Positions 16,036 to 40,913 of a DNA stretch of 64,000 nucleotides are shown here, one piece after another (positions within the stretch are counted from its first letter, which is position 1; each line of letters opens with the position of its first letter). The notes beneath the pieces were generated by a model. That model did no database searches. It had not been told where the DNA came from and was given only the letters and a program-made list of their open reading frames with translations. Both the position numbers and the translations under genes were made by a program. Source of the DNA: Protoeuglena noctilucae (Eukaryota). The stretch covers positions 1,240,001 through 1,304,000 of the forward strand of contig OY253671.1 of NCBI GenBank assembly GCA_958009085.1, in the 5' to 3' direction.

Positions 16036-16396
16036 CACTGGGGCGTGAAAAGTGACTGGGTGCTACGCAGTCACCGATCCATGCTGGGTCCATCATGCTG
16101 CCTAAGATGAGACGTGTCCTCGTCCTTGTCGTGACCTCTTTGTCGTATGATCCTTGTCCACATAGTGTTGCACTGCGTGTGGCAGTTGCCTAGTGGGGTC
16201 GCTAGAAATGGCCCAAACTGAGACAGGCACGCACTGGCAGTGTCCAGGCCTAGCGAGCACAGCAGCCGCAATTCGAACATCTCCGCTGTTCAAGCGATCA
16301 GCTAGTTGAGATTTGAGAGAATCAGGCACTGAGCCATCAGATTTGCATCATTAACGACCGGTTGGTTGGTTTATGAACTGCTGAGCGTAGTGTCGG

Positions 16397-19300
16397 TCAC
16401 AGCTTGGATGCTGGCTGCATGGGTGCCACCAAGCGCGCCCCGACAGTCGGCAGTGTCTGCGCCATCTGCACGACCACCTTGCCTGCAACAAGCGGAGAGT
16501 AGTAGTAGTGGGTAGTGAGCGGAGGCAATGAATCTCAGCAGAAGCAACAGCTGTGCTCATGGGGTGGCTCCTCCCTATAAAAATGGAAGTGCTCTCTGCG
16601 CTTATCGCTACAGGCCCAACATGTTGCATGGCACGAAAGGGCGACCGGCGCTTGGTATCCTCACCGACGCTCTTGCCGCTCTGGAGATGCTCCACGGCAT
16701 CCACGACGGCGTCCGCACCCACGAACGACCTCGGATCCACCGACACGCGGAGCTGGCCCGAGTGAAGCAGGGCGCACAGCTGAGCAAAGTGCGCTCTTAT
16801 CTCCTTCGTGTATTGCAAGAGGAAGAACCCTCGCACGGACGCAGACTTGGGGAGGAGCTTCTCAGGCAGGCCCTTAGATATCGTCGCGGGCCACCCCGTG
16901 CCATACGCGCTCATCATCCCGATCACTGCGCACGCGGCATGGGTACGGCTATGGTCACACATGAGCACAGCAAAAGTCAGTGTATTGAACCAATGGCGTG
17001 TAGGAGAGACATCACACTCACCAATGCACCTCCCTTTCACGGCAAGGCTGTCAACGGCGGTCGCAAACATGTCCCCGCCCTGCACGAGACGGGAGCGGCG
17101 ATGGGCAAGTCTGTGGTGTGGCACAGCTGCCACAAGCGAGCCCCTGAACAGCGCGCTCTACGCATTGCATGCAACAAGTCATCCCGTTGCACTGGCACGC
17201 ACCACAGACTCAAACACGATGTCCACCCCCGAGGGGCACTCCTTCCGGAGGACGTCGCCCAGAGACTCCGTGGTGAAGTTGACCACCCTGCATCGCATCA
17301 TCACCCAAGGATGGGTGTCGCAGGTGTCTCGCGGCAGCCTTGGTCCTGCGCAAGCACCTGGGCAGCGCGTGGCAACCGCCCATGCAGGTGCAACGGCACA
17401 AGCCACCTACCAGGTTGCCGCTAGCATAGATTAGCATCGTCTCACCGATCGGCACCCAGGTCTTTGAGCAACTGCTCCTTGGCACCCCCGCTGCACGTGG
17501 CGATCACCCGGCACCCCTTCAGCTTGGCCAGCTGCACCGCGAACTGCCCCGTGCCCCCCGCAGCCGCCGTCACCAGCACTGTCTCCCCGGCCTTCACCTC
17601 CCCGACGGACTCGAGGGCTGCGATGGAAGGGCCCAGGATCCAGTGGTCAACAGCAGGGGTCACCTTCACACCTCTGTGTAAAGCGCGACACAGGTGCTGA
17701 TGACGGCACAGCAGCATGAGTGCGGGTGCACTGCCGTTGCAGTAACACCAGTAAGCAGGTGGCTCACCGATGCTGGCAGTGAGTCCGCTGGTGAGGAGGG
17801 CCAGGTACTCGGGCGCAGGGGCGGGAACGGGGAGGCACGCGCGCTCGGGGACGAGGGCGTGTGTCGCGAAACCCCTGCGGTGTCAGTGGGTGTCCATTGA
17901 CCGGGTGCAAAGAAGCGAGGGATGCCCGTTGCCATGAACAGGAAACACATTCCGTTGCCCTCCACCCATGTGCTAAGTGAGCACTCACCCGTACGTCATG
18001 TTGGCCACAGGATCCCCGACCTTCACTGCAAGCGGACAAGAGACGAACACAGTTGCATAGCAGCGGTCGCAAGGGTGCCACGGTGTGTAGCACGCACTCG
18101 TCCCTGAGACAGAGACCCCCTGCACCTGACGTCACACCATCGCCCACAGCCCCGATGACCCCGACTGACTCGAACCCAGCGTCGAATGGCAGCGATGCGC
18201 CCGCCTCCGCGACGCTGCGGTGGTAGCGCCCCGCGCTGCGGTTCACGTCACTCGCGTTCACTGCGGCAGGCAGAGACACTGACGTTGGGCCCTTGGGGTG
18301 AGCGGGGAGCTGCTGCCACTGCGGGTGATGATGGTGTGCAAGGCGTGCCATGGACACAACTCGCGTTGTGTCCTTCCGCCTCACCTCCCGCGAACGTGCG
18401 CACCACCAGCACCTGCCCCGGCGCGCACAAGGGCACAGGCGCGTCCTCGACCCGCGTCGCCCTGCGGAAGTCCTCTGACAGCGTGTGTACCATCACGCGA
18501 CGGGCGCGGTGTCCCGCCCCCAACTGCCCCGCCGTCCATTGCGCGTACGCGACCCGCTGCTCCGCGCTGGGGCCTGGCACGGCGCCCTGAGCGCGTTCGG
18601 ACGGCACCGCGGGCCCCGGCGCGGCGATGAAGCCCCGTGCGTCGATGCGCGAGAGCTCCTGGGGCACGACTGCCTGCTGGATCCTCCCCTGCCGGTCCCT
18701 GGCGATGTAGAGACCGACGCCCGACAGCGAAGAGTCGGCCAGGAGTCGCTGCAGGGCGTCGACTGCAAAGATGGATGAGGGGACGCTAGTTTGCAATGTA
18801 CCAGCAATACAGGGAACATTTCTGCACCACGAAAGCGGGAGCTGCTTTTGCTTGCAGCGGCAGGCGTCACCAATGATGGTGGTCGGCATGATGGGCGCCA
18901 TCTGAAGCGTCTGCTCGACGCGCTTCCTGGCGCGCTCGCCCATGACCTCCAGCCCCCGCGCCACGAGCCGCGTGTCCGCGTACGCGGGGCAGATGGCGAC
19001 GGTGCGGATGCCCATCGAGCGGCTGAGGTGGCCGAGGCTGCGCATCAGCTGATAAACGCCCGCCTTCGTTGCAGCATAGACCGGCGCCTGCGGCATGGGG
19101 AAGAGAGCGCCAGCCGACGCCGTGCTGCGGGCGAAGAGGGCGGAACAGCACCATTGTTTCATTGCTGCAACTGCCGGCGCAGCATCACACACCGCCACGG
19201 GCGTTCCCTCACCATGCGAGGAGCCGCGGGCTCGGTAGGGCTGTGCGCCGCATGTCCTGGATGGCCAGGTGAGTCCCCGTCGCGACGGCTTTCAGGTTGA

Positions 19301-19643
19301 TGTCCAGGACCGAGTGCCAATGCTCAGGAACGGTGTCGGGCGAAGCAAAGTCCCCCTCGCCGCCGATGCCGGCGTTCAGCAGCGCAATGTCGAGCCTCCC
19401 GAAGGCCTCCCAATGCGCACGGAACGCGCGCGTCTGCTCCTCGTCGCTCCGCACATCGACGCGTACGAAAATCGCCTTCCCGTTGGCCTGTTGGATGGCG
19501 CGGGCCACCTCCTCGCCCCTCTCATCGAAGTCGACGATCGTCACGCCGCAACCTTGGGACGCGAGCCACTCAGCGGCCACTCGACCCAGCCCATGCGCCG
19601 CACCTGTGACCAGCGCGGCGCAGCCATGGATTTGGGGCGGCAT
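16397..19643 (-). CDS. Bifunctional SDR + zinc-free MDR (quinone/alkenal reductase, PTGR3-like) fusion of the plant NQR/ARP type, with peroxisomal PTS1 (-SKL)
   Basis: N-terminal SDR motifs VTGAAHGLG, LNAGIG and YAATK. C-terminal MDR motifs FAG|VNASDVN, GFESVG, VLVTAAAGGTGQFAVQLAK and GVDIVFESV. The last exon reads KVVVQMAQTLPTVGARLVAPMQPASKL then TGA (16399-16397). Confidence 0.92.
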
Positions 19644-19793
19644 TAGCGCACTCGCTCGCTGCTGCGCGCTGCAGCGCTCGCTGATGACCGCGGAGGCTCT
19701 GTCGGCTCCGGATTGGCTCAAGACGATACTAAATTTTGCTTGCTTGTTTCACGATTGGGTGCTGCCCTCTCTGACACCCATTTTCTTAGCCGC

Positions 19794-21090
19794 TCAGGGC
19801 CCGCTGACGGTCCCCGTCTCCAAGGCCCACTCCGGCGCGTTGAAGACCTTGGCCGCCGTGTCGCTCGCGATCCACCGACGCTCCTCCTCGGACAAGATGG
19901 GCTTCCCCGACTCGTCCTGCCCCGTCAGCAGGGACCAGGCCTTTGCGTAATCGCACTCCTGCGGGAGGGAAGTGAATGCGCATGGTCATCGCATGTGCAC
20001 CTCGCAGGAGCGCGACGCTGGGTCTCCATCTGCCTCCATCTGTGGGCTGGTCTTCGCACCTCCGTGACCCAGGGCCAGTCGGTGCCCCACATGAGCCGCT
20101 GCGCCCCGAACGCGTCCACCAGCTGCCGGATCTTGGCGGGGGCCGCGGGGTACGGGTGCTTCGCGGACGTGACGCGGAAGAAGGCCGAGAGCTTGATGTA
20201 GACGTTCGGGTGCCTGGCGAGGGCCACGAGGCGGTCCCATGCCGCATGGTCTGGCTCATCCATGGGGCAGAAAGCGAAATGGTCCAAAACGACCGTCGTC
20301 TCCGGGGAGAAGGCGATGAGCTCCTCGATCTCGTCGATGTGCTGGAGCAGGCCCTTCATCACCATGTGGCCCACTGCGGGCACCGACGCGACGACCAGTC
20401 GGTGGGGTCGGTGGCGAGCCAGGATACGGGCGCACAGGTGCACGGACGGGTGCAGACACTCACCTGGCACGCCCAGCTCTCCCGCCTTCTTGTACAGCGC
20501 CTTGCCCACCGCATTGGTCATTCGCTCCCCTGCGGGCCAGATGTACGGATGGAACCGCACGCCACAGTACCCCTCGTTCCGTACCAGCTCCTCCATCTGC
20601 TCCACACCTCGGCCACCGTCGCTGGGATCCCTGCAACACCCAGAGGACGGGCCACGCTGAAAGGCGAAGACGCCTGCAAACCGCCTGAAGCGGGCAGCAT
20701 GGGCACGCAAGCGCAAGCGTGTGACGTGGCTTGCCCCGAAGTCCCACCTCGGGTCCGCAAGCAGCATCCCCTTGAATCGCGAAGGGTGTCGGCGGATGAC
20801 GCTGGTCATGTACGAGTGGTCGAAGCCGTGGTTCTTGGGCTGGACAATCAGCGCAGCCTTGACCCCTGCGCGGTCCATGTCCTCCAAGAGCCGCTCACTG
20901 GGCGGGAAAGGATGGTCGCATGGGCATCAGCGCCGTACAGTGCTGCGAGCATTGCCAATTAGGCCAGGCCCTACCCTCACCAGTGCCCATCGATGGGCGG
21001 GACGAGCCCCTCCCCGAACGGGAACTCGGTCTCCCCCTCCCTTGGTGCCCAGACGTGGACGTGGCTGTCAACAAGGCCGCCGGTCGACAT
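19794..21090 (-). CDS. Amidohydrolase-2 family metallo-hydrolase (COG3618 lactonase-like)
   Basis: MSTGGLVDSHVHVW (HxH), AALIVQP, GVRFHPY, VVLDHFAF, KLSAFFRV and RLMWGTDWPW. Additional upstream exons are possible. Confidence 0.9.
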
Positions 21091-24770: not shown

Positions 24771-25001
24771 GGTGGGCGGGAGAGGGGCGAGTAACCCCCC
24801 TGGGCGGAGGAGGCTGCGTGGAATGGGAGGAGCTAAGCTGCGTTTCCCTTTGTCTTCTGGCGTCTTTTTCAGCCTACCACCCATGGCACGACACCGTTTG
24901 TCTTGCGCTGCTGCAGCAGTTGAAGTCGCTGCCGTTTGGTTGCTGGGCTGCACCAGATATACAGTGATCGTTCCGCGGCATTCGGGAAAGGAACGACGCC
25001 C

Positions 25002-28000
25002 ATGCTAGCCTCCCAAACGGCGTTCGCGCGATGCGCGGACCGGCCGTGCTCGTCCTCGTCGTCCAGCAGGGATGCCTTCCCTCATCGCCCAGCTAGATGG
25101 ATGCCCAGCCGTCCAGCGAGTGCGGCGCCGGCGCTGCGGGCGCCTCGCCGGGGGCACGGGATGCGCGACACCAAAACGAGCGCAGCGGGGATCGCCAGCG
25201 ATCTCAGGTGCTTGCTGACGGTCTTCACGGCATGACATTTATCTTCTTCAGCTGTGGAACTTGTTGCGGCCGTCGGAGCACGGGCACAGGATTGGATCCG
25301 AGAACATCAAGGATCCTTGCGTCGGCCTCGCCTTGCGCGGCTGTCCCGTCCCTGCCTCGGGCTTATTGCCCGCGCATCAGGCAGCTCTGTGCAAGTCGTA
25401 ATTGCTTGAGCCTGGTCCTTGAACATCTGCGTGCTGTCGAGCCAAGACATTGCTCACTGCCACACGCACCCCGTCGCGTCCGCAGCAAGTGGTGGGAGGC
25501 GCAGACGGAGCTGTGGGTCACGGTGCATACGGAGGAGGATTTCTGGCGCGAGGTGTCCACGCTTGAGAACGGCCAGGAGATCGTGCTCGTCGATTGGTAC
25601 GCGACGTGGTGCAAGTCATGCCGGGCTGTGTATCCGCTCGTGTGCGTCCGGGCCGCCGACAAGCAGCTTAGGAAGCGGGTCAAGTTCGTCAAGGTGCGTT
25701 ATGGCGGCTTCGGACCCTGTGCCTCACTACTTGGCTCTGCAGCCCAGGCCGTACTTTGGACGCAGCTGTGTGTTTCTGTTCGTGCGCCCAGGCCAACGTG
25801 GACGAGCTAAAGAAGCTATCCAAGGCCGAACAGGTCACTGCCCTCCCGTGGATCGCCGTGTACAAGTGAGGGGCCGGTCAGCATGCGTTCCGTCATGTTG
25901 CTGCGCGCATGGAGGTGGAGGTCGTGGCTCCTTTCACGCCCCTGCAGGCCCGAGGATGGCCAGATCGCAGCGTGGCACAGCCCCCAGAGCAAGATGCGCT
26001 ATCTGAACAGCTCCATCCAGACCATCCTCGACAACCCGGATGCCGCGTTCGCTGTCGACCCGAACGGCTTTGTCATCATCACCGGCAAGGTATGCGCACC
26101 TGGCCCTCCTGCACCTGCGCCTGCTTGGTGAAAGCACGAGAGGCGTGTGATGAGTCAGCATGCCAGTCTCGTTCGTGGCGACCCTTGCGAGCTCTAACCG
26201 CGAGTGAGCTGCCCTTGTTGCCCGCAGCGTGCCCCCAGGGCAGAGGTGCTGCAGAGGCAGGCACAGAAGGCGGCAGAGGTGGATGCGATGCGAAAGGGCG
26301 CCGAGGGACTCTTCGAGCATCTCATGGCGGTCTCTGACAGGCAGGGGGGCGTGGGCGAGGCCACGCCAGCGACGAACGCCACGGCTGGCACGGCTGCAAG
26401 CCCAGCGGCGCCCGTGGCTGGGAAGTCGCCGAGCGCGGCCGACATTGGCGGTAGCGGCGGTGGCGGGGGCAGCCTCTTTGACCGTCTGATGAAGATCGGG
26501 ACGTCCTCCGACCCGACGCCAGCCCCGGCCGCGGCCGCCCCCGCTCAGGGTGCCAACGGGGGTGCCAAGGTACAGGGGCGGCCGGAGAAGGCGGCGTTCT
26601 TGAAAACGACCGCGGGGATGTACGGGTACTCCGGTGAGCGTGCGCCTCAGCTAGGACGGTCTCGGTATGGGGCTAGGGTGGGTTCAAGGAAGAGGGCACC
26701 CGTATGTCTGGCGGTCGCAGGGATGCTGGACAAGGTGTTTGACTTGGAGGTCGGGGCGCGGCTGGCTGGCGACCACTACATGGACTACATGGGGGCGGGC
26801 GTGTACACGCACATGCAGGTGGAGGGGGCGTTCGAGGAGCTCAAGGGCACGCTTTACGGGTGAGGACAATGCACCGAGAGTTCAGTTCATGGGCTGAGGG
26901 GCCCTCAGGTCACGTCACGTCTTAGGAGGGACGGCGTGCTGCCTTGGAGCTGATCTCATGCGCGTCCCTGTCACGCTCGTTGCTTCCCGCAGCAACCCGC
27001 ACTCGGTCAACCCCTCGTCGATGCGCTCGTCGGATGCAATCGACGACGCCCGCGCCCGCGTGCTCCGCTTCTTTAACGCCTCGCCGGTGGACTACCACGT
27101 GGTTTTCACCAAGTCCGCCACGGGGGCCCTGAAGCTCGTGGGAGAGGGGTTTCCCTGGCAGGAGGGGTCGCAGGCGAGGGCAGAGTGCTGGTCACGAGTG
27201 GTTGCTCTGATATGCCATGGGCGCAGCTGTGAGGTGGGAAGGTCGCGTGTACGGTTTTGGTCCCCGTGCATGTCTGTGAGCTGTGACGCGTCCCCTCGGT
27301 GCTTGCAGTTCCGTTACCTGCATCAGAACCACAACAGCGTCCTCGGCATCCGGGAGTTTACCACGAGGCATGGAGGGACTTTCCAGGCAATGGACGAGGT
27401 GACACACGTGGATGGCAGATTGGGCGACGCTCGCAATTCAAACTCGACTACTGACAGTGCATGCCCACCAGGCCCCACGTATGTGCTCACTGACCATGCT
27501 TGCTCGCGCAGTGCGAGGTGGAGGCGTGGCTGTCGGGGACCGGGGAGGATGGCGAACCGGGGGCGACGTCGCTCTTCGCTTTCCCGGCTGAGGAGAACTT
27601 CTCTGGGGCCAAGTTCCCTCTCTCGTGGATCGATCGCGTGAGGTCCAAGGGAACGGAGTCGACCCAATGGTGAGGAGTGGATCGAAGGCTGCTGATGGCA
27701 TCAATGGGGCAGACAGTCAAGGCTTACAATGGGGCGGGCCGATAGTGGTTACTTGATAGAGGGGCACTGCATGCGTTACACAAAGCCTCCCGCTCGTCCA
27801 CCGTGACCCGCCAACATCGACACCGACCATCGTTGACGTGGGCCCGCAGGAGGGTGCTGGTGGACGCGGCGGCATTCGTGCCCACCAACCCCCTGGACCT
27901 CTCTCGCCACCAGCCGGACTTCGTCGTCGTGTCTTTCTACAAGATGTTCGGGTGCCCCACGGGGCTCGGGTGCCTGCTCGTGCGCGCCGACGCAATCGAC

Positions 28001-29248
28001 GTGCTGCAGGACTCATACTGGGGCGGCGGGCAGGTGGCGCTGGCCACGGCGGGGTCCGACTTCCGCGTCATGCACTGCCAGCCCAGCGAGCGGCTGGAGG
28101 ACGGCACGCAGGCCTTCCTGGACATCGCAAGCATCAAGCACGGGTTCGCCGCCATCGAGGCGAGTTGCTGCGGTTGCTGTGTAGATCTCATCTGATGCCG
28201 GCGATGAGACCTCGTGGTCGTCTCTGTTAGAGTGCACGGCACTGTTAACAGGGCAAGACAGCGCTGCATCCGGTCTTGGTTTCTCGCAGCGGCTCGGGGG
28301 CGTGAAGCGCGTGCAGGACCACGTGATGTCTCTGGCCGAGTGGCTGCACCAGGGGCTCAAGGCGCTGCGGCACTCGAACGGGCAGCCCCTCGTCCGCTGC
28401 TTCGGCAAGTGGGGCGCCGAGGACCTCAGGTGCGGCAAAGGAGCGCGTGGGCCCGCGTCCGTTGCGCTTTGATCGATGCTGCGCGTTCCCCATCGCAAGT
28501 CACGCCTCGCTCCGCACCCACCAGGGCCAGCCAGGGCGCCGTCCTCAATTTCGTGGTGATGGACAGCCGGGGCCGCGCGGTGCCCCACAAGGACTTCGAG
28601 AAGCTGGCGGCCAAGGAGGGCTTCCATCTGCGCACGGGCGCCGAGTGCAACCCGGGGGCGTGCTACGCCGCGCTCGGGCTCAGGTGCGGCGGCCCTGGAG
28701 CATTAGCTCTTTTTCTCGCGCAGCTCTGTGTGTCTTGTCATTCGGGGGGGCTTGCTGGCTTCACGAAGCAGGCCGCGCCTGACCCCGTGCCATTGTGCCA
28801 TACTAATGAACCTGGCTGGCCAGTCCGGTGCGTGCAGGGACGAGGAGGTGATGGAGCTCGAGGGGCTGATGGAGGGGTGCAAGGATGAGGGAGTCCAGTT
28901 CATCACCGTGAAGCGGCCAGCAGCAGCGATCCGGTCGGGGAGCGTGGTGGTGGGCGCGGACGTCGCACCGCAGAGCACGATTCGGGTGTCGGAGGCGCTC
29001 TACAACGGCGCGACGGGGCTCGATTGGGTCAACGGTGAGGGCCTCAGGTCTCAGGCTGTCGCAGGCTGAGCGCGCTGTCGTCGCCCGTCCTTGTTGGCAA
29101 AATGCGTTGCAAGGACTCCCTGCAACGGATGTGCTGCCCTTGGCCCGCAGTGCCGCTGGGAACGGTCAGGGTGAGCCTGGGGGCGTGGAGCCGGTGGGAG
29201 GACTGCGATGCACTGTTGGCGTTCCTGCGGGGGCACTACCGACAATAA
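25002..29248 (+). CDS. Fusion of transit peptide, atypical thioredoxin (ACHT/Trx-Lilium-like, WCKSC), linker and MoCo-sulfurase-type PLP cysteine-desulfurase domain (no MOSC)
   Basis: Trx part: KWWE...IVLVDWYATWCKSCRAVYP...KFVK|ANVDE...ALPWIAVYK. PLP part: YMDYMGAG, G|NPHS, VVFTKSATGALKLVGEGFPW, NHNSVLGIRE, LFAFPAEENFSG, VLVDAA, SFYKMFGCPTGLGCLLVR, EDGT, LRTGAECNPGAC and GTVRVSLG. Stop TAA at 29246-29248. The halves are joined in frame by intron 26090-26227. Confidence 0.85.
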
Positions 29249-29586
29249 CACGGTCAGACCAAGTCAGGCCTCCAGTCTAGTGGGCGACGGACGCGGCGAT
29301 AGTATTGAATGCCGGACATACGCGGAACACAAGCCAGGCACACGCGAGAAGGGAAGCTAGACAGCTGCATACGCTGGGCACCTCGCTGGGTGAGCTCTTG
29401 TCGCCCTGCCCGACGACGTCCGGTCCAAATCCTGGCGTTTGTTATCTCACTTAGCATGCCGAGCGCTCTCCACAGGCGTTTTGTGGATTCCCCGCACTGT
29501 AACTCGGACTCCAAGACCTCGACGGTGCTGCATCGCGGTGCATACGATTTAAAGGGCTTCCCAGGCGCGAGGAGATTGGACGGGCA

Positions 29587-29968
29587 ATGGATCCGCGCAC
29601 GGTGTCCGTCAGGAAGCTCTATCGGGACTGTCTCCGCCTCGCGGACTACGTCGGGACGCTGCAGGGTGCGGAAGGGCAGGCTGAGCGCCGTGTTGCTGCA
29701 TCCAGTGCATGCCAACGACGTAAGACAAGCTCCTGTCATTGCAGGCAATAGGGAAGCCGTCCTCGGCATGGTCCGCGCGGCTTTTCGGCGGAACCAGCAC
29801 GAGACCGACCCCGAGAAGATTGTGGAGCGCAAGATGGACGCCGTGCGGGGCCTGGGCAACTACGCCTTGATGGAGGCAGCGAGACTGCAGAAGGAGCGAG
29901 CGGGGCCCGCGATGCAGCGTGCGCGGGAGGAGGCGGCCCGCACCAACTTCGACGCCCGAGAGTCCTAA
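29587..29968 (+). CDS. LYR-motif (Complex1_LYR) family small mitochondrial protein
   Basis: MDPRTVSVRKLYRDCLRLADYVGTLQ|GNREAVLGMVRAAFRRNQHETDPEKIVERK: LYR motif plus the conserved downstream Phe. One GT-AG intron. Confidence 0.88.
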
Positions 29969-32300: not shown

Positions 32301-34547
32301 ATGGGCCTGAGGCGGCGCCCGCGTCTTATCTGGACTCTCGGCGCGAGACTTTGCTCGTTGCAGCGGAGGCATGGGGGGTCGTCAGCGCAAATCGTCGTCT
32401 TCGGCGATGGCAGCCAGGGCGCGCTAGGCCTGCGCTCCACGGCCGACGCTCACAGCCCGACGCGCGTCCCGGGGCTCGAGGGCCTTGAAAAGCCGCTCAT
32501 AGCATGCGGCCACTACCACACGCTCGTCGCGTCCCAGGCGAGGGCGACGCTGCAGCTGCCGGTTTGAGCTGCGGCGTGATGTGGCCATCAACGCCATGCC
32601 CCGCCGTCCGCAGGGCCGCGTGTGGGGATGGGGACGTAGTTGGGAGGGCCAGGTGCCTGCGGTGGACGCAGGAGGGCTGCAGATGGAGCCTGTGGAGGTC
32701 AAGGGCCTGGAGACTGCAAAGATACGGTGATCGGCACATCGAGGTGCTTCTAGGGCGCAGCCGTGGTCGATTCGGCAGAGCGAGGCAGTGAAAGTGACGT
32801 ACCAGTCCCCGCGCAGAGCCCTGGCTGCGTCGGGGGTGGTCAGCTTCGCGGTGACGGAGGGCGGCGATGTCTTAAGCTGGGGCTCCAGCCAGCATGGGCA
32901 GCTGGGGCTGGGCCCCACGGTGCGCAAGAGTGTCTCTCCGAGAGCGGTGCCCATTCCCAAGAACCGCAGGTGCGAGTCCTGAATCCCGGCTGGCGGGGAC
33001 ATTGTGGCGACTCCCACTGCTGCGCCATGCCAACATGTATGGCAGGTACATGAGTGAAGCAGTCACGCCTCTCGGGCACGCGCAGGGTGGCTGGGTTGGC
33101 CGCGGGGTGGGGTCATTGTCTGGCGTGGAGTACCAGTTCGCTGTCGCTCGCCGGGAGGGAGTGGGAGCAAAACTTGTATGGGTGGGGCTTGGGGGACGCC
33201 CAGCGCCTGGGTGAGGCGTGCGCTTGGGGCTTGGCAAGCTTTGGGCACGGGCATGGGCATGGTGGGGCTGGGTACTGCGGTACCAGGACGAAACCGTTGG
33301 CGCTGGTTGTCATGCAGGGCTCACCGCCGATGAGGTTTCCACGATTGTGTGTGGAGGGCACAGAGGCGCAAGTGCGGCGGAGGAGGTGAGGCCGACGGTC
33401 ATGCTTCTGTTTAAACGTATGCTATGCCAGGGCTGCTAGTAAATGTCATGGATGCCATGGTTATCAGCAATGTCGCCTTGGCATGCAGAGTTCCCTCGAC
33501 GAGAGCGCGGGGCCGGCTCACATCTTCTGGCACCCCACCAAGGTCGGGTGGGCACGAGGCAGTCTAATGTCGGGGCAGACCGCCACGCACGGCGCGTGGG
33601 CGCAGGCGGTCTGTGGGATGGACTTTACCCTCGTTTTGACCAGAGAGGGAAACGTGCTGTCATTCGGGGACAACAAGTGAGGCAGCCGACCGCTGGCGCG
33701 TTGTGCGTGAATCATGACATGTCATTGCTGCTTTAATGGACTTAGTCTAACCACGTAGCCCGTCGAGTGTTGCGAAGCTCCTGGTTGTTGCCTTCTCTGA
33801 CGCAGGCTGGGGCAGCTGGGGCGCCCCACGCCATCGGACGGGACGACGAGCTTAGCGGGGGTCTTTCTACACGTCAGCCAAGTGGACGGCCTGCCCCGAG
33901 TGAGCCACATCGGGTGCGGCCTAGGCCACTCACTCGCTGTGGCCGAGGGCGGCCGGGACGTCTACTCGTGGGGGTGGGGCGCGGCGGGGCAACTGGGCCG
34001 CCAGGGCGATCCCCGCGTTCCTAGTGAGGCCGGGCTTGCTAGGGACAGGGGTGGATTGGATGGCGATGGGTTGGCAGTGGCGGGGTCCCGCGTCAGGAGC
34101 TGTGACGTGCATGCCGCCTGCCTCAGTCGTTGGCATCGGCGTCGCAGTGCGATATGTAGTACTACAACGTGCCCGTGCCTCGCAGGGCGCGTGGACTTGC
34201 CCCCGCTGGGCGGCGGAACGCACGTGGTGAAGGTCTCCGCCGGGCGCGTTCACTCAGTCGCCCTGCTCAGTGACGGCACGCTTCTCTGCTGGGTGAGTGG
34301 GGTGGCATGCGGTGTGATGAAAACTGCAGCCTCGCAGTATGCGATCTCATGAGAACTGGCTGAGCTGCCTCACTAAGCCTGCGCCGCGACGCCTCTGCCT
34401 TTGCAGGGGTCTGGGCGGCGCGGGCGCCTGGGCACGGGGACTCAGGAGGACAGCCCCCGCCCGCGCCGGGTGGCGATGCCGGGGTCGCGCCGCGTCACGG
34501 ACGTCGCGTGCGGGCACGACCATGTGGTGTGCGTGGTGGAGGACTAG
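32301..34547 (+). CDS. RCC1-repeat (UVR8/HERC-like beta-propeller) protein
   Basis: Repeats include FGDGSQGALG, IACGHYHTL, WGSSQHGQLG, AAGWGHCL, CGMDFTL, GCGLGHSL, WGWGAAGQLG, SAGRVHSV and ACGHDHVV. Stop TAG at 34545-34547. The start is uncertain. Confidence 0.88.
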
Positions 34548-36073: not shown

Positions 36074-38922
36074 ATGAAGGGGCTCGTCGCTTGGGCAGGG
36101 CACCTCGCAGCCGCCACGCGCGTGGCGGACGGCAGGGGCTGCCCGCTCGCTGCGGCTCACATCGCATATTTCCGACCCAGGCCGTCTTTGCGGACTCTTC
36201 GGTTCGCTGGGTGAGCGCTGGAGAGGAGATGCCATGCCATCGCGCCCCCGGGGCCGTAAATGCACGGCTGCGTGTTCAGGACGGCCGCCCTCTTCTCCGG
36301 GCGCCGGATGGCCGGAGACCGCTGGTCGCCGATTGCGATGACGATGCGCGCGCAGCTTGCTGTGAAGGCTGCACGTCCGGCCGAGAGGCCGGCGGCGCGG
36401 GGGCCCAGCGCTGGCAGACGGCTGGCCGTCCATTGCTTCCCTCAGGGCACCACAACGGCGCGAGAAGTGCGTCGGCTGGAGCAAGAATATGTCAGTGATG
36501 GCATCGGCATCGAAAGGGCGGGCCCTGATCTCCGTGTCGGACAAGACGGGCCTCACGGACCTGGCCAAGGTCGGCGGCTGCTGTTTTCCGATGCTGCAGC
36601 CGCGCGGCGCGGCCTGCCGCGGCCTGCGTTACCTTACTCGTCGCTCCCTCATTCGCAGGGCCTAGTGGAGTTGGGACATGAGGTGGTTTCTACTGGAGGC
36701 TCGGCCAAGGCCATCCAGGAGGCAGGGGTCCCGGTGACCCCGGTGGACAGCGTCACGGGTTTCCCGGAAATGTTGGACGGTCGCGTGAAGACGCTCCATC
36801 CGGCCGTCCACGGCGGAATCCTCGCCATTCGGGGCAACGAGGAGCACATGCAGGCGAGGCAACTGTTATGACTCACGCCAACAGCTGCATTGCTGCGGGC
36901 GCCCGTGACGACAATTGGACATGCCGGTCTCACAGCCGGCGCTGAAGCCCCGCCGCACCGCGGTGTGGGCCCGTGTGGGCCGATCGATAGGCCTGAGGCG
37001 CCGCCCTGCCATGTTTAGCGTCACACGTGGTGGCGTCAACGACATGTTTCGCACGGCCGTCGTGCTTTGATTGCCCGCAGGCGATCCAGGCGCACAACAT
37101 CCGCCCGATCGACGTGGTGGTGGTCAACCTGTACCCCTTTCGTGCGACGGTCACGGCGGCTCAGGCGCCCACGTTCGACGTGGCCGTGGAGAACATCGAT
37201 ATCGGGGGCCCTGCCATGCTCAGGTGAGGGCGGCTGGCGCAGAGAGCATCGCGACTGGCTCAGCGCGCGCGGGTCGCTCGTGCACGTGGGATGCTGTCAG
37301 CAACGCCATGAGCCATGATCGCGACACCGCACTGCGTCACGTGGCTGCAGAGCGGCGGCCAAGAACCACGCAGACGTGTCGGTGGTGGTGGACCCGGCGG
37401 ACTATGGGGAGTTGCTGGAGCATCTGCGGGGTGGGGAGGGGGCGTTGGAGTTCCGGAGGCGGCTGGCGTGGAAGGCGTTCCAACACACGGCATCGTACGA
37501 CGCCCAAGTGTCCGAGTGGATGTGGGGCCAGGTCGGGGCCGGGGCGCCTCCGCCCGAGATGTGCGTGCCCATGCGGCTGAGTCAGGGGCTGAGGTACGGG
37601 GAGAACCCTCACCAGTCGGCGGCCTTCTACCAGGACCTCTCCCTTTGCGAGGCGGGCAAGGGAGGCGTGGCCTCGTCTGTCCAGGTGCGGGTGCTGGCCC
37701 TGGCGTGATGGCATGTGGTGCGCACGCCTGGTGCTTGCCCAGGGCCCCGTGGGCGTTTGCTATGTTTACGGGGGAGGATGACAAACCCTTGAGAACATTC
37801 ACGACGGTCTGCTGACTCTCGATGATGACATTCTCATGTGCCTCGGCACTGTCTGACCCGCGGCTGATGTGCGTCCGCATGCTCTCGTGACCCATCCATG
37901 TTTGCGGCATTGTGCCGGCTGCCGTCTTCCCCAACCTCGCCTCTCGCCCGTCGCGTCCCGCAGCAGCACGGCAAGGAGATGTCGTACAACAACTATCTGG
38001 ACGCGGACGCAGCCTACTCCTGCTGCTGCGACTACCAGGAGCCCACCTGCGTGATCGTCAAGCACACCAACCCCTGCGGCATCGCCACGCGCGGGGACCT
38101 CCTCGAGGCTTACCGCCTCGCCGTGGTGAGACCCGGCCGCGTTTGCACCGCTCGCTGGTCTCACCGCGCGTCTCGCTCCCCGCCTCCGGCCCCATGGACG
38201 AACGTCGCCCTCAATGTCGCCCTCGCCCCTCGCAGTGCGCGGACCCCATTTCGGCGTTCGGGGGCATCGTGGCGTTCAACCGGACGGTGGACGCGGACCT
38301 CGCGCGCGAGATCCGGGAGTTCCGCTCGCCGACGGACGGGGAGACGCGGATGTTCTACGAGATCGTCATTGCGCCGGGGTACACCCCCGAGGGCCTGGAG
38401 GTGCTCCGCGGCAAATCCAAGCAGCTGCGCATCCTGGAGGCCAAGGCCCGACCGACGTCGGGGCGGTCGCTGCGGCAGGTGGCGGGGGGCTGGCTGCTGC
38501 AGGAGCACGATTCGCGCCTGCCGGAGGACATCGAGTTCACGGTCGTATCCGAGGCCAAGCCCACCGAGGCGCAGCTGGAGGACCTGCGCTTCGCGTGGCG
38601 CGCCGTAAAGCACGTCAAGTCGAACGCCATCACGGTGGCCAAGGGGCAGAGGCTCCTGGGGATGGGCAGCGGGCAGCCCAACCGCGTCAACTCGGTGCGC
38701 ATCGCCCTCGAGAAGGCGGCGGAGGAGGTGGAGGGGTCCGTCATGGCCTCCGACGCCTTCTTCCCCTTCTCGTGGAACGACTCGGTGGAGATCGCGTGCA
38801 AGGCGGGGGTCAAGGCCATCGCACACCCGGGCGGCTCCCTGCGCGACCAGGACGCCGTCGATTGCTGCAACAAGTACGGCGTCGTCCTCGTCACCACCGG
38901 GGTGCGCCACTTTAAGCATTAG
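36074..38922 (+). CDS. purH: Bifunctional AICAR transformylase / IMP cyclohydrolase with an organellar transit peptide
   Basis: [108 protein letters not shown] and GVRHFKH-stop. The 5' leader exons are approximate; the conserved part starts at ~36498. Confidence 0.97.
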
Positions 38923-39071: not shown

Positions 39072-40913
39072 ATGGCCAGCCGCGTCGCCGACGGCGCCCT
39101 GTGCGCCTCGGGCCGCTGCGTCCCTGGGGCCAGACGTGTGTGTGCGGCGCCTGCTTTAAGTCGCGCAACGTGGGTGTCGACGCGGTGGGGCGGGAGGGCG
39201 ACCCGAGCGCAGGAGCGGGGTAGGGTGCGCGCAGGAGAGGGCGAGGGGGCTGCGGACGCCGCCTCCACTCCCGTCGTGAAGAAGACGTACGAGCCTGTGC
39301 TGGGGGATAAGGCAAGGCCCGCTGCGCGACGGAGGGTGGCCGTGGATGTGCGGCAGACGCCGCAATGGCTGTTATGCGGCCTGGCAGCGTTCCTCTGCGC
39401 CTGCGGCGGGATGAGAGTGCGCACTTAGTCTGTCTTTGCGTTCGCCTCGCCAACGTGTGTCGATACGGTCTCGATGGGGGCCCAGGGAAGCGTCGCTGCC
39501 GTCGCAGGTTGTCGCCCGCGTCGTGCGCACCGGCTACAGGGGCTGCACCGTGGAGATCGTGACGGCGGAGGAGGGTACATTGCATGGCACCGGGGTGATG
39601 GGCTTCGTCCCCCGGGCCATGTATCCCCGGGACATTGGGCACCAGTTTGACCAGCTGACGGACTACGCCCGCGCGGACCACGAGCGGGCGCAGAAGATTC
39701 GGGAGGAGGTGCGTTCTTCGCAAAAGGACGGGGCCGAGGGCGAGGAAGAGGCCGAGGCAGAGGCCGAGGCGTGGGCGGAGCGTAAGCCGTCGCGCCGGGA
39801 TGGGCCTGGGACGCAGCGAGACGGCAAGAGGGGCTCTGGGAGTCCCGGCCAGCGCCCATTCGAGGCCCTGGAGCGCGCGCGGTGAGCTGCGCCGCTCGCG
39901 CTCTCCGCCCCTTTCATGGCGCCGTCCCGGCCTAGTCGCCCTCGCAACTGCACGCGAGTGCCCTGACGCAGGGCCGACGACGTGGCCCCCCTGGGCCTGG
40001 TGCGGGAGTTTGTGGTCCGGAGCCTGGCGGATCCGGAGCGCCACAAGGTCTCTTGCGTCCTCTCCGGGCGGCAGGTGGACCGCGACCTGATGTTCCGTCG
40101 GGCCGACCAGATTGCGGCGGTGTGCAAGAGCGACAAGGAGCTCCTGCGGGGCACGGTGATCTCGACGAACGAGAACGGCTACGTCGTGCGCACCGCGGGC
40201 TTCCTGGTCTTCGTGCCACGGAAGCTCGCGGACCTCCCGCCTGATGCGGACCTGGAAGAGGTGCACCCGAGGGACTCCTCCGTGGAGCTCTCCGTCATCC
40301 GCGTCGACCTGCAGCGGAGCCGCATCGTCGGGTCCTTCTCCGACGTACCCATCCACAAGAGCTACCAGAAGGTCAAGGTGAGGGGCGGGGGTATGACGGG
40401 ACCCAGCGCCCGGCCCGCCCCACCGCCCACGCCCGCACAGCGCACTGTGCAACTCACCCGCCCACCGCATCCGCTACCGCCCGCACCCCGCAGGTGGGCT
40501 CCCTCGTGAGCGGCAAGGTGCGCCAGGTGCTGAGCTATGGGGTGTTTGTGTCGATCGACGGCACGCGCATCTCGGGCCTCCTTCACATCTCGAACGTGTC
40601 CAACAAGTTCGTGCCCTCGATCGACTCCATCTTCAAGGAGGGCGACCGCGTCAAGGCCATCGTGGTCGGGGTGGAGCCGGGGTTCCGTGACGTGGCCCTC
40701 TCCACGGCAGAATTGGAGGCCTTCCCAGGCCAGATGCTCGAGGACAAGGACGGCGTCATGGAGGGGGCCAAGGAGCAGGCCAAGGAGTTCCAACAGTTCC
40801 TGGACTCGTACGTGCAAGAGGGCGATGATGATGCGGGGGATGACAATCATGGGGACGGGGGGCGGGGCAGGCGGGAGGGGGCGGAGGGGGGGCGCGACGC
40901 GGCCTTGATCTGA
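39072..40913 (+). CDS. S1 RNA-binding domain protein, plastid ribosomal protein bS1-like, with transit peptide
   Basis: Three S1-like units: GDK|VVARVVRTGYRGCTVEI...GFVP; GTVISTNENGYVVRTAGFLVFVP; VGSLVSGKVRQVLSYGVFVSIDGTRISGLLHISNVS...FKEGDRVKAIV. Confidence 0.85.

Follow-up and report, generated by a model that had tools for sequence, protein, structure and literature searches.

A spliced green-algal gene joins an ACHT-type thioredoxin to a MOSC-less cysteine-desulfurase-like domain: a possible thioredoxin-coupled desulfurase

The stretch of DNA analysed here, 64 kb in length and called the window below, contains a gene on the forward strand at positions 25002-29248, which consists of 14 exons and 835 codons in a script-built model (Table 1). 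The gene is nuclear, and its host is a marine, GC-rich green alga. Eleven of the 13 introns have GT-AG borders, while introns 7 and 10 are of the GC-AG type. The transcript evidence consists of contigs from three RNA runs (X1, X2 and X3) of one marine metatranscriptome study, which show no differing letters relative to the window; these are assembled contigs rather than raw reads, and minor isoforms are possible. All 13 introns are spliced out, at the modelled coordinates, within one contig of X1 (3111 nt) and again within one of X2 (4794 nt). The contigs of X3 contain 12 of the 13 joints, the missing one being that of intron 4, and zero joints are seen in the DNA run X6. The RNA contigs start at positions 24984-24997, shortly upstream of the ATG. 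A putative gene of the LYR family lies downstream (Pfam Complex1_LYR at 23.9 bits, slightly below the cut-off of 24.8; no PDB match), and it does not adjoin the fusion gene in the relative L002.

The splice that connects the thioredoxin to the linker/PLP half (26087 to 26226, GT..AG, 138 nucleotides skipped) is present in the contigs of both X1 and X2, and if intron 4 were retained, the frame would stop at about 26129. The thioredoxin-desulfurase gene yields a single spliced mRNA that spans both halves, as the first-pass annotation had proposed. It is vanishingly improbable that adjacent thioredoxin and desulfurase genes have been wrongly joined by reading through. A prokaryote-style ORF (P0121, 192 aa) spans only part of the thioredoxin, and assembled contigs are able to bridge neighbouring genes, but contigs of two RNA runs show a GT-AG intron spliced out at the joint with the frame preserved. 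Moreover, L002, which is intron-poor, has both domains in one uninterrupted frame of 891 codons, and complete fused ORFs are found in independent transcriptomes of Neomeris, Acetabularia, Tetraselmis and Pyramimonas. The splice joint of intron 4 and the uninterrupted frame of L002 refute a two-gene artefact.

Table 1. Coordinates of the fusion gene and its features in the window
Feature	Position	Strand	Remarks
Start ATG	25002	+	
Stop codon	29246-29248	+	
Coding region, exons 1-7	25002-25207, 25486-25693, 25792-25865, 25948-26089, 26228-26633, 26721-26859, 26993-27173	+	
Coding region, exons 8-14	27309-27398, 27512-27669, 27850-28159, 28290-28429, 28525-28683, 28838-29034, 29151-29248	+	
Intron 4	26090-26227	+	138 nt, GT-AG; between thioredoxin and linker/PLP half; skipped in X1 and X2 contigs
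Intron 7	27174-27308	+	GC-AG, GCGAGG donor; 135-nt skip in contigs of X1, X2 and X3
Intron 10	28160-28289	+	GC-AG, GCGAGT donor; 130-nt skip in contigs of X1, X2 and X3
Presequence	25002-25207	+	Exon 1, ~68 residues; candidate organelle transit peptide
ACHT-type thioredoxin domain	25486-26089	+	Exons 2-4, residues about 69-210; KWWE to DPNGFVIITGK
WCKSC active-site codons	25607-25621	+	W110 C111 K112 S113 C114; from the sequence
Linker	26228-26584	+	Residues 211-329, Ala/Gly/Pro/Ser-rich; low-complexity, flexible
Linker motif, first copy	26306-26326	+	GLFEHLM
Linker motif, second copy	26471-26491	+	SLFDRLM
PLP domain (class V, NifS-like)	26585-29245	+	Exons 5-14, residues about 330-835; MOCOS-like, MOSC-less
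PLP lysine K566	27941-27943	+	SFYK; K in 225 of 226 aligned family rows
Cys611	28076-28078	+	Aligned with residue 282 of CpNifS (4q75) and T268 of E. coli SufS
A724-E725-C726	28640-28648	+	TGAECNPGAC; codon of catalytic-position Cys726 at 28646-28648; Ala replaces the first Cys of GCxC

The Ser/Arg/Ala-rich leader described earlier corresponds to the presequence encoded by exon 1, whose first 60 residues include 11 Ala, 10 Arg, 10 Ser, 7 Pro and 3 Asp residues but no Glu. A presequence of 65-100 residues that is likewise rich in A, R, S and P and poor in acidic residues is present in most full-length relatives. In the thioredoxin domain, exon 2 alone matches Pfam Thioredoxin (PF00085, E 3.4e-8), and the tryptophan and both cysteines of the WCKSC site are invariant in all 17 aligned fused proteins. 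Its closest solved structures are 6lyw and 6lyx (E 1.2e-8), followed at a worse score by PDI A4 (1.7e-6) and a classical thioredoxin (2.7e-5), and the relative P0018 gives the same ranking. The structure 6lyw, with which the domain shares KWWE and TWCxSCRA..P..C, is the Arabidopsis “Thioredoxin-like 2-1, chloroplastic”; we take this protein to be ACHT1, and its own site is WCGSC, unlike the WCRKC of TRX L2. The canonical thioredoxin site is WCG/PPC and that of TRX L2 is WCRKC (PMC12596114), and WCKSC is thus a non-canonical CxxC site. Among the solved structures, the domain resembles ACHT more closely than it does the other types of thioredoxin, which agrees with its initial description as ACHT/Lilium-like. 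It has in common with the Arabidopsis ACHT proteins the KWWE lead-in, the non-canonical WCxSC and a Cys after the site, but these proteins stand alone, with a length of about 200-300 residues, whereas the algal domain forms the N-terminal part of an enzyme. In a word-based search, the thioredoxin exon retrieved only the unspliced ORF P0121 from the window itself and no named ACHT or TrxL2, and the thioredoxin part of P0018 matched two fragments among shorter proteins, neither of them so named. In the ESM Atlas, the thioredoxin part matched generic “thioredoxin domain-containing” clusters only, and the whole protein scored 0.82, which is under the lead level of the Atlas itself. The short motif that occurs twice in the linker is matched, as a regular expression, in 13 of 27 family members (11 distinct proteins).

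The PLP domain matches Pfam Aminotran_5 (PF00266, cut-off 21.5) in exon 7 (E 7.2e-5, 22.4 bits) and exon 10 (E 5.9e-11, 42.4 bits), and ten fused relatives score 78-122 bits against the same profile. The position of Cys726 is a cysteine in 225 of 226 family rows, and D540 and R721 are kept in every one of them. All core catalytic residues (K566, D540, R721 and C726) are present and the cysteine-desulfurase-like domain is complete, as had been read from the motifs at the outset, together with the loss of the first cysteine of GCxC. The best PDB matches are desulfurases of the SufS/CsdB/NFS2 type (6a6e, 4q75 and 1c0n, E about 1e-13), and by sequence the domain resembles group-II (SufS/CsdA/NFS2-like) desulfurases. 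The SufS-SufE/SufU, CsdA-CsdE and plastid NFS2-SUFE systems are two-component systems in which an acceptor cysteine takes the persulfide (PMC8931425, PMC8003979). The similarity to them is distant, and the presumed acceptor in the algal protein is not SufE or SufU but the fused CxxC thioredoxin with an extra desulfurase cysteine.

The domain also shares the motifs GNPHS, SFYK, RTGxxCNPGA and VPLGxVRxSLG with the NifS-like class-V PLP domain of ABA3/MOCOS, to which it is about 55-60% identical over exon 10, and which forms a persulfide on a conserved cysteine (PMC6321594). The algal fusion differs from ABA3/MOCOS in that it has a presequence and an N-terminal thioredoxin but neither MOSC_N/MOSC nor the first cysteine of GCxC. 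The protein ends with the NifS-like domain (…LRGHYRQ), as do its relatives (…YKDR..). Pfam identified no MOSC domain (PF03476, PF03473) in 11 relatives, and a tblastn search with four MOSC-bearing MOCOS proteins found NifS exons and no MOSC exon in the whole window, in line with the absence of MOSC noted previously.

To place the fused proteins, we compared two phylogenies. In the FastTree phylogeny, the MOSC-bearing rows fell within a clade of 88 rows (support 100) and all fused rows in a separate clade of 35 rows (support 96). In the quick IQ-TREE phylogeny, 21 MOSC-bearing rows formed one group (SH-aLRT 91) and the fused rows were placed in a MOSC-less group with moderate support (88-90). 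A single fused clade is compatible with the data (p-AU 0.673, not rejected). The fused PLP domain appears to belong to a widespread MOSC-less sister group of the MOSC-bearing proteins. The first-pass annotation had suggested that the thioredoxin replaced the MOSC acceptor domain; since the fused rows are inside the MOSC-less group in both trees, it is more likely that their ancestor was MOSC-less already, which argues against an ABA3 protein in which MOSC was swapped out. Membership of ABA3/MOCOS was rejected on the lack of MOSC, the position outside the MOSC-bearing group in two trees and the absence of the first GCxC cysteine.

It is very improbable that the protein nevertheless performs the task of ABA3 with a Moco-binding partner (MOSC- or XdhC-like) encoded elsewhere. 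The identity to MOCOS over exon 10 would fit such a Moco sulfurase, fused and MOSC-less members alike carry the automatic source name “molybdenum cofactor sulfurtransferase”, and the gene of one bacterial relative, L076, adjoins an XdhC gene. However, MOSC is missing from the protein, its relatives and the window, the MOSC-bearing proteins are a separate group in both trees, and the first cysteine of GCxC is kept in most of them and in none of the fused proteins. The organelle-type presequence is also at odds with a Moco sulfuration that is cytosolic (PMC8931425). We argue that the automatic name is wrong for the fused proteins because they lack MOSC, form a separate clade and are missing the GCxC cysteine.

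At least 21 fused sequences were found in Chlorophyceae, Ulvophyceae, Tetraselmis, Pyramimonas and the streptophyte alga Mesostigma, the named sources being Edaphochlamys, Neomeris, Caulerpa, Acetabularia, two Tetraselmis, Pyramimonas and Mesostigma. The combination of Thioredoxin and Aminotran_5 without MOSC recurs in algae, with both PF00085 and PF00266 in 10 of the 11 closest long matches tested. Among 1.84 billion representatives, ~11 clusters (50% identity) match thioredoxin and NifS contiguously. The thioredoxin-desulfurase family is, judging from this distribution, old and conserved across Chlorophyta and Mesostigma.

The alignment further shows a cysteine swap, new here, that is confined to the fused clade, with the first cysteine of GCxC lost and Cys611 gained. 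Position 724, Ala in the window, is a cysteine in 67 of 75 MOSC-bearing rows, 106 of 130 plain rows and none of the 21 thioredoxin-bearing rows. Conversely, the position of Cys611, which aligns to the hairpin preceding the RLEDGT motif, is a cysteine in 21 of 21 thioredoxin-bearing rows, 0 of 75 MOSC-bearing rows and 3 of 130 other rows; these three are N-truncated ORFs, all of which group with the fused sequences. The CxxC, the PLP lysine, the Cys611 equivalent and the catalytic cysteine are invariant in the 17 aligned fused proteins. For the thioredoxin, Cys611 and Cys724 there are only 1 to 3 pairs of independent contrasts, too few to reach significance. Phylogenetically the pattern is one event, and so may simply mark the clade, with no mechanistic connection.

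We tentatively favour, at slightly less than an even chance, the reading that the protein couples its desulfurase to the thioredoxin, with Cys611 and the CxxC resolving the persulfide on Cys726. The PLP domain would convert L-cysteine to alanine and leave a persulfide on Cys726. The acceptor would be built in, as a tethered CxxC thioredoxin and the gained Cys611, the usual GCxC neighbour having been lost. Resolution of the persulfide by Cys611 and the thioredoxin dithiol would release sulfide, or hand on the sulfane sulfur, and leave a disulfide on the thioredoxin, which an organellar reductant would re-reduce, so that turnover would depend on redox conditions in the compartment, which is probably the plastid. 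Thioredoxin reportedly acts on such persulfides, judging from the title of Zheng et al. 2019. Counted in favour of this reading are the spliced fusion, the conservation in the family, the clade-restricted cysteine swap, the likeness to group II and the neighbours of the bacterial relatives described below. Group-II desulfurases require specific acceptors, and in a natural desulfurase-rhodanese fusion, the CD-Rhd of Pseudorhodoferax, the fused cysteine speeds turnover and relays the persulfide (PMC8931425). Both proteins join a desulfurase to a cysteine-bearing, sulfur-handling domain, but the rhodanese is C-terminal with a single cysteine that acts as a carrier, whereas the thioredoxin is N-terminal with a dithiol that should reduce the persulfide rather than carry it. 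Release of H2S from sulfurtransferases driven by TRX has also been described (PMC11763069). No characterised thioredoxin-desulfurase fusion was found in the literature searched. The earlier statement that no protein of this architecture has been characterised stands to that extent, and is weakened by an editorial which mentions this review (Caubriere et al. 2023, J Exp Bot 74:3345) as exploring the “coupling with ... thioredoxins” of desulfurases (PMC10243964); the review may already mention the thioredoxin link.

The main rival, which we consider unlikely, is a redox switch, in which the ACHT-type domain is a regulator and not a catalytic partner. Thioredoxin that has been oxidised, for example in darkness or under stress by way of H2O2 and 2-Cys peroxiredoxin, would form a disulfide, such as Cys611-Cys726, that turns the enzyme off, and reduction in the light would turn it on. 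The thioredoxin is nearest to the ACHT-type 6lyw, and the clade-specific second cysteine is what a regulatory disulfide would need. On the other hand, plant APS reductase, NTRC and Trx-MsrA/B are thiol-based enzymes with a fused redoxin that regenerates the active-site cysteine, and their thioredoxin modules are catalytic electron donors rather than switches; their catalytic domains are unrelated to the desulfurase. The simultaneous loss of the GCxC partner cysteine also points to altered catalytic chemistry, beyond added control. In Arabidopsis, ACHT and TrxL2 are described not as general reductants but as oxidation factors whose electrons go to 2-Cys peroxiredoxin, and which oxidise and deactivate chloroplast enzymes at light-to-dark transitions (PMC11910432). 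This speaks against a coupled desulfurase, since a regulatory role agrees with it no less well.

A role as a selenocysteine lyase in selenium recycling seems decidedly unlikely. The PLP domain would then prefer selenocysteine, the thioredoxin would free selenide for selenophosphate synthesis, and the enzyme would have been kept in selenoprotein-rich algae and lost along with selenoproteins in land plants. In its favour, family members are found in green algae and in Mesostigma, and the PDB lists class-V relatives such as CsdB and SufS as selenocysteine lyases. The desulfurases described for Arabidopsis are limited to NFS1, NFS2 and ABA3 (PMC8931425), and algae have large selenoproteomes that land plants have lost (PMC2375036). 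These arguments are correlative, with no residue-level sign of selenium specificity, and MOSC-less relatives are spread over many protists and bacteria whether or not these use selenium.

All thio-cofactor and Fe-S pathways begin with a cysteine desulfurase, and the fate of the persulfide decides the destination of the sulfur. A desulfurase with a built-in thioredoxin would be a natural experiment that could show thioredoxin to be a physiological persulfide acceptor or reductant for desulfurases. If the coupled reading is true, the protein is a possible enzymatic source of H2S (or selenide) in algal plastids. Since conservation of the fusion extends from prasinophytes to Mesostigma, the green lineage would have had a fourth desulfurase type, beyond NFS1, NFS2 and ABA3, that is left out of Arabidopsis-centred schemes. 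In a bolder form, which we regard as rather unlikely, the protein would be a synthase of sulfide (or selenide) in the green plastid, self-contained and driven by thioredoxin. By giving up the CxC partner cysteine of the family and acquiring Cys611 and a tethered ACHT-type CxxC, it would have gained a three-cysteine relay that converts cysteine or selenocysteine to H2S or H2Se only with photosynthetic reducing power, and it would predate the chlorophyte-streptophyte split and have been lost in land plants.

Among the bacterial MOSC-less relatives, a gene for a rhodanese-domain or thioredoxin-fold protein lies within about 2.6 kb in 9 of 77 loci, with no background rate for comparison. Most neighbours are unrelated genes, and some of the thioredoxin-fold neighbours look like exported TlpA-type proteins. 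In one bacterial locus (L056), genes for Prx, a Lactamase_B-rhodanese protein and the NifS-like protein lie on one strand.

The gene encoding the fused protein was modelled by script from the sequence of positions 24800-29500 and its stop-to-stop frames. The model comprises 14 exons on the forward strand, with an ATG at 25002, a stop codon at 29246-29248, and 835 codons, and it contains the start, the end, and all of the motifs reported in the first-pass annotation. Eleven introns are of the GT-AG type and two (introns 7 and 10) are of the GC-AG type. The short GT-AG introns in the window are typical of a green alga, and the G+C content is approximately 65-72% across the whole window. Exon 2 by itself was identified as Thioredoxin in Pfam (E 3.4e-8), and Aminotran_5 was identified on exon 7 (7.2e-5) and exon 10 (5.9e-11). 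A tblastn search with four MOSC-bearing MOCOS proteins matched the NifS exons and revealed no MOSC exon in the 64-kb window. A protein of 192 residues in the public protein collection (P0121) represents an unspliced ORF at 25233-25810 (+) that runs from intron 1 across exon 2 into intron 2; it results from prokaryote-style gene calling applied to the DNA of a eukaryote.

The reading of both halves as a single transcript was confirmed by the RNA data. RNA runs from one marine metatranscriptome study contained 42-48% of the sampled words, which approximates the exon share, and DNA runs of “organism A” contained 100% of the sampled words of the stretch. Three RNA runs (X1, X2, and X3) were compared with positions 24900-29400 as assembled contigs from this one study, so that rare isoforms fall outside the scope of the comparison. 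One X1 contig of 3111 nt and one X2 contig of 4794 nt, both matching the sequence with 0 differences, each skip all 13 introns as modelled, including both GC-AG introns and intron 4 (26087->26226, skipping 138 nt, GT..AG). X3 contained 12 of the 13 joints, the intron-4 joint being missing, and the DNA run X6 contained 0 joints. The splice between the thioredoxin and PLP halves preserves the frame, which is direct evidence that they are located on one mRNA. Consistently, the intron-poor relative on a metagenome contig, L002, contains a single uninterrupted frame of 891 codons with a presequence, a thioredoxin (SKWWEE...WCAGC), a linker, and a NifS-like domain. The RNA contigs start at 24984-24997, shortly before the ATG. 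At the other end, the contigs extend approximately 440 nt (X1) and 2.1 kb (X2) past 29390 (+), and may bridge into the LYR-family gene and beyond via overlapping UTRs, read-through, or assembly.

Features of the window and of loci (L-numbers) encoding bacteria-like MOSC-less relatives
Feature	Position	Strand	Basis or remark
Ala/Arg/Ser-rich leader	exon 1	+	sequence
KWWE...WCKSC	exon 2; WCKSC 25607-25621	+	sequence
Low-complexity linker, ~120 residues	exon 5	+	sequence
Introns 7 and 10, GC-AG, GCGAG donors	27174-27308; 28160-28289	+	joints seen in RNA contigs
SFYK, K566	27941-27943	+	sequence
TGAECNPGAC, C726	28646-28648	+	sequence
Small two-exon LYR-family gene	29500-29968	+	~300 nt downstream of the stop of the fused gene
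LRR protein	30.8-32 kb	-	Pfam on open frame
Other window genes	16354-20926	-	Pfam on open frames
Other window genes	33801-34349; 36260-38919; 40245-40910	+	Pfam on open frames
L056	2550-6051	one strand	1-Cys Prx + Lactamase_B-rhodanese + NifS-like
L004, L054	L004:1064-4400; L054:3791-6936		Sulf_transp + Sulf_transp-rhodanese + NifS-like; Sulf_transp-rhodanese just upstream
L021/L022	L021:13-2602		NifS-like + rhodanese + TlpA-like redoxin
L076	14-2381		XdhC adjoins NifS-like gene
L067			Cys/Met PLP enzyme neighbour
L048			PAPS reductase neighbour

Among longer proteins, the top matches to exon 10 showed 55-70% identity and many contained both PF00085 and PF00266; Pfam confirmed both domains in 10 of 11 relatives, the eleventh (P0008) being N-terminally cut. 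In a profile search with nine fused proteins against 1.84 billion representatives, approximately 11 clusters (50% identity) matched contiguously from the thioredoxin through the NifS-like domain. By source name, the fused members belong to the Chlorophyceae (Edaphochlamys), the Ulvophyceae (Neomeris, Caulerpa, and Acetabularia), Tetraselmis (Tetraselmis sp. GSL018 and T. striata), Pyramimonas parkeae, and the early streptophyte Mesostigma viride, along with several unnamed marine metagenome clusters. For several members, the ORF is complete and derives from an independently assembled transcriptome. The closest relative of the window protein, P0299, is 59% identical over the PLP domain and also contains WCKSC. 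The thioredoxin W-C..C, the PLP lysine, the catalytic cysteine, and two further cysteines are invariant in 17 aligned fused proteins. A short amphipathic motif occurs twice in the linker of the window protein, as GLFEHLM at 26306-26326 and as SLFDRLM at 26471-26491 (+), and could serve in docking. A regular expression for this motif matched 13 of the 27 family members, representing 11 distinct proteins, with two copies in four, including the window protein.

The nearest solved relatives of the PLP domain are the group-II desulfurases (SufS/CsdB and plastid NFS2; E ~1e-13), with the group-I enzymes NFS1/IscS at lower rank and with partial coverage. To place the domain relative to ABA3/MOCOS, the molybdenum cofactor (Moco) sulfurases, 219 NifS-like domains from the exon 10 and profile searches were sorted by the presence of thioredoxin or MOSC. 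In the FastTree phylogeny, 50 MOSC-less proteins of approximately 480 residues were set apart (support 100); these were taken to be bacterial because three have bacterial MAG names, the remainder being unnamed metagenome records. The 75 MOSC-bearing proteins were contained within one 88-row clade (support 100), and all 14 fused rows were found in a separate 35-row clade (support 96) with proteins that have neither MOSC nor thioredoxin. In a quick IQ-TREE phylogeny (LG+C20 PMSF) of 76 chosen rows, the 21 MOSC rows clustered together (SH-aLRT 91), and the 16 fused rows were placed inside a MOSC-less group (88-90), these supports being moderate. The idea that an ABA3-like MOSC acceptor was replaced by the thioredoxin is thus not supported by either tree: in both, the fused rows belong to a MOSC-less group and the MOSC rows cluster apart. 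The nearest thioredoxin-less relatives include the green algae Tetradesmus, Monoraphidium, Helicosporidium, Prototheca, and Cymbomonas, and the ancestor thus most likely lacked MOSC already. MOSC-less MOCOS-like enzymes are widespread, occurring in Nannochloropsis, Blastocystis, Vitrella, Pelomyxa, metamonads, and many bacteria. A tree with the fused rows constrained to one clade was not rejected (p-AU 0.673) and scored better by 7.15 log-likelihood units, so that the fusion likely arose once. Five fused or MOSC-less proteins (P0006, P0008, P0127, P0279, and P0280) carry the pipeline name “molybdenum cofactor sulfurtransferase”, which is probably an over-annotation, since the MOSC domain is absent and the clade is separate. 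Moco sulfuration by the fused enzyme would involve a separate partner, and we consider it very improbable.

Residues were counted in 226 aligned NifS-like domains (75 MOSC, 130 plain, and 21 fused rows, the latter representing approximately 18 distinct clusters, as they include two identical-domain pairs and one cluster-mate pair). K566 is retained in 225 of the 226 rows, as is C726, and D540 and R721 are invariant. Position 724, the first cysteine of GCxC, is a cysteine in 67/75 MOSC and 106/130 plain rows and in 0/21 fused rows, and Glu replaces Phe as the following residue in 15 of the 21 fused rows. Position 611 shows the opposite pattern, being a cysteine in 21/21 fused, 0/75 MOSC, and 3/130 other rows. 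In the three exceptions (P0001, P0005, and P0133), the ORF begins within the PLP domain, and all three group next to fused proteins; P0001 forms one 90% cluster with the fused P0299. Some non-fused rows contain a cysteine a few columns away from position 611. The PDB alignments pair Cys611 with residue 282 of CpNifS (4q75) and with T268 of E. coli SufS, in a hairpin directly before the RFEAGT motif. In group-II enzymes, the hairpin of one subunit overlies the active site of the other. The changes at positions 611 and 724 represent one to three events on the tree, and the pattern may therefore be a single clade signature. As far as could be seen, the clade-wide cysteine swap is a new observation.

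For exon 2 of the window and for the fused relative P0018, the top match among solved structures was the Arabidopsis “Thioredoxin-like 2-1, chloroplastic” (6lyw/6lyx; E 1.2e-8 and 7.9e-13, respectively), which ranked above PDI and classical thioredoxins and which we take to be ACHT1. The alignments share KWWE and TWCxSCRA..P..C. The active site of 6lyw is WCGSC rather than WCRKC, the defining site of TRX L2 (PMC12596114), and this, together with the best match, supports the initial designation of the domain as ACHT/Lilium-like. Most full-length members have a presequence of 65-100 residues N-terminal to the domain, which is rich in A/R/S/P and poor in D/E and is consistent with an organelle location. 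Since the ACHT-type domain accompanies such a presequence, a plastid location is our best guess.

In the fused protein, the desulfurase catalytic set and the CxxC are both intact, the tether between them is long and flexible, and the cysteine swap is present. In desulfurases, the persulfide forms on the catalytic cysteine. Persulfide intermediates of thio-cofactor synthesis are reportedly reduced by the thioredoxin system (Zheng et al. 2019). According to PMC8931425, group-II desulfurases require a dedicated acceptor, and the fused cysteine works as a relay in a natural desulfurase-rhodanese fusion; thioredoxins release H2S from persulfidated sulfurtransferases, as described in PMC11763069. 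We tentatively propose, at slightly less than even chances, that the persulfide on Cys726 would be resolved by Cys611 and the tethered thioredoxin dithiol, with sulfide being released or the sulfur handed on, and that an organellar system would return the oxidised thioredoxin to its reduced state. In the main rival reading, which we consider rather unlikely, the ACHT-type module would act as a switch on the desulfurase; the Arabidopsis ACHT and TrxL2 proteins are described as oxidising and deactivating chloroplast enzymes (PMC11910432). That the catalytic set instead serves a selenocysteine lyase is improbable.

No characterised thioredoxin-desulfurase fusion was found in the literature searched, in agreement with the first-pass annotation, though the fusion may already have been noted in print. 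An editorial (PMC10243964) states that the review by Caubriere et al. 2023 covers the coupling of desulfurases with thioredoxins, and a citing review (PMC11763069) mentions the CD-TusA and CD-Rhd fusions of Caubriere et al. We rate the fusion as belonging to a known type, in which a desulfurase is joined to a partner that handles sulfur. Databases already contain the architecture, but under names that are generic or misleading, such as “Thioredoxin domain-containing protein” and “molybdenum cofactor sulfurtransferase”.

The other genes in the window, identified by Pfam on open frames, encode zinc-ADH-like, short-chain dehydrogenase (SDR), Amidohydro_2, LRR, RCC1-repeat, PurH (MGS + AICARFT/IMPCHase), and S1-domain proteins. 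None of these is sulfur-related. The neighbouring genes are thus unrelated housekeeping genes, apart from the LYR-family gene directly downstream of the fused gene. The latter reads ...VRKLYRDCLRLADYV..., then ...NREAVLGMVRAAFRRNQHETDPEKIV..., and scores against Pfam Complex1_LYR with an E-value of 3.9e-5 and 23.9 bits, just below the cut-off of 24.8. Its location beside a desulfurase-like gene is curious because mitochondrial NFS1 has a LYR protein, ISD11, as its partner. The adjacency is absent in L002, where the downstream gene is P450-like.

For the MOSC-less relatives, 288 ORFs adjoining 77 bacteria-like loci were scanned. A rhodanese-domain gene was close by in 6/77 loci, a thioredoxin-fold gene (AhpC/TSA, Redoxin, Thioredoxin, or DsbA) in 6/77, and either of the two in 9/77, all being raw counts without a background control; most neighbours were unrelated. 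That the bacterial relatives are sometimes located in apparent operons with sulfur-trafficking genes is a lead only. In a bacterial arrangement that recurs in seven loci (L016, L020, L029, L034, L035, L043, and L077), the NifS-like gene follows an FAA_hydrolase (Rv2993c-like) gene on the same strand, and genes of the HPPK and DUF1706/DinB families are located upstream in six of these seven.
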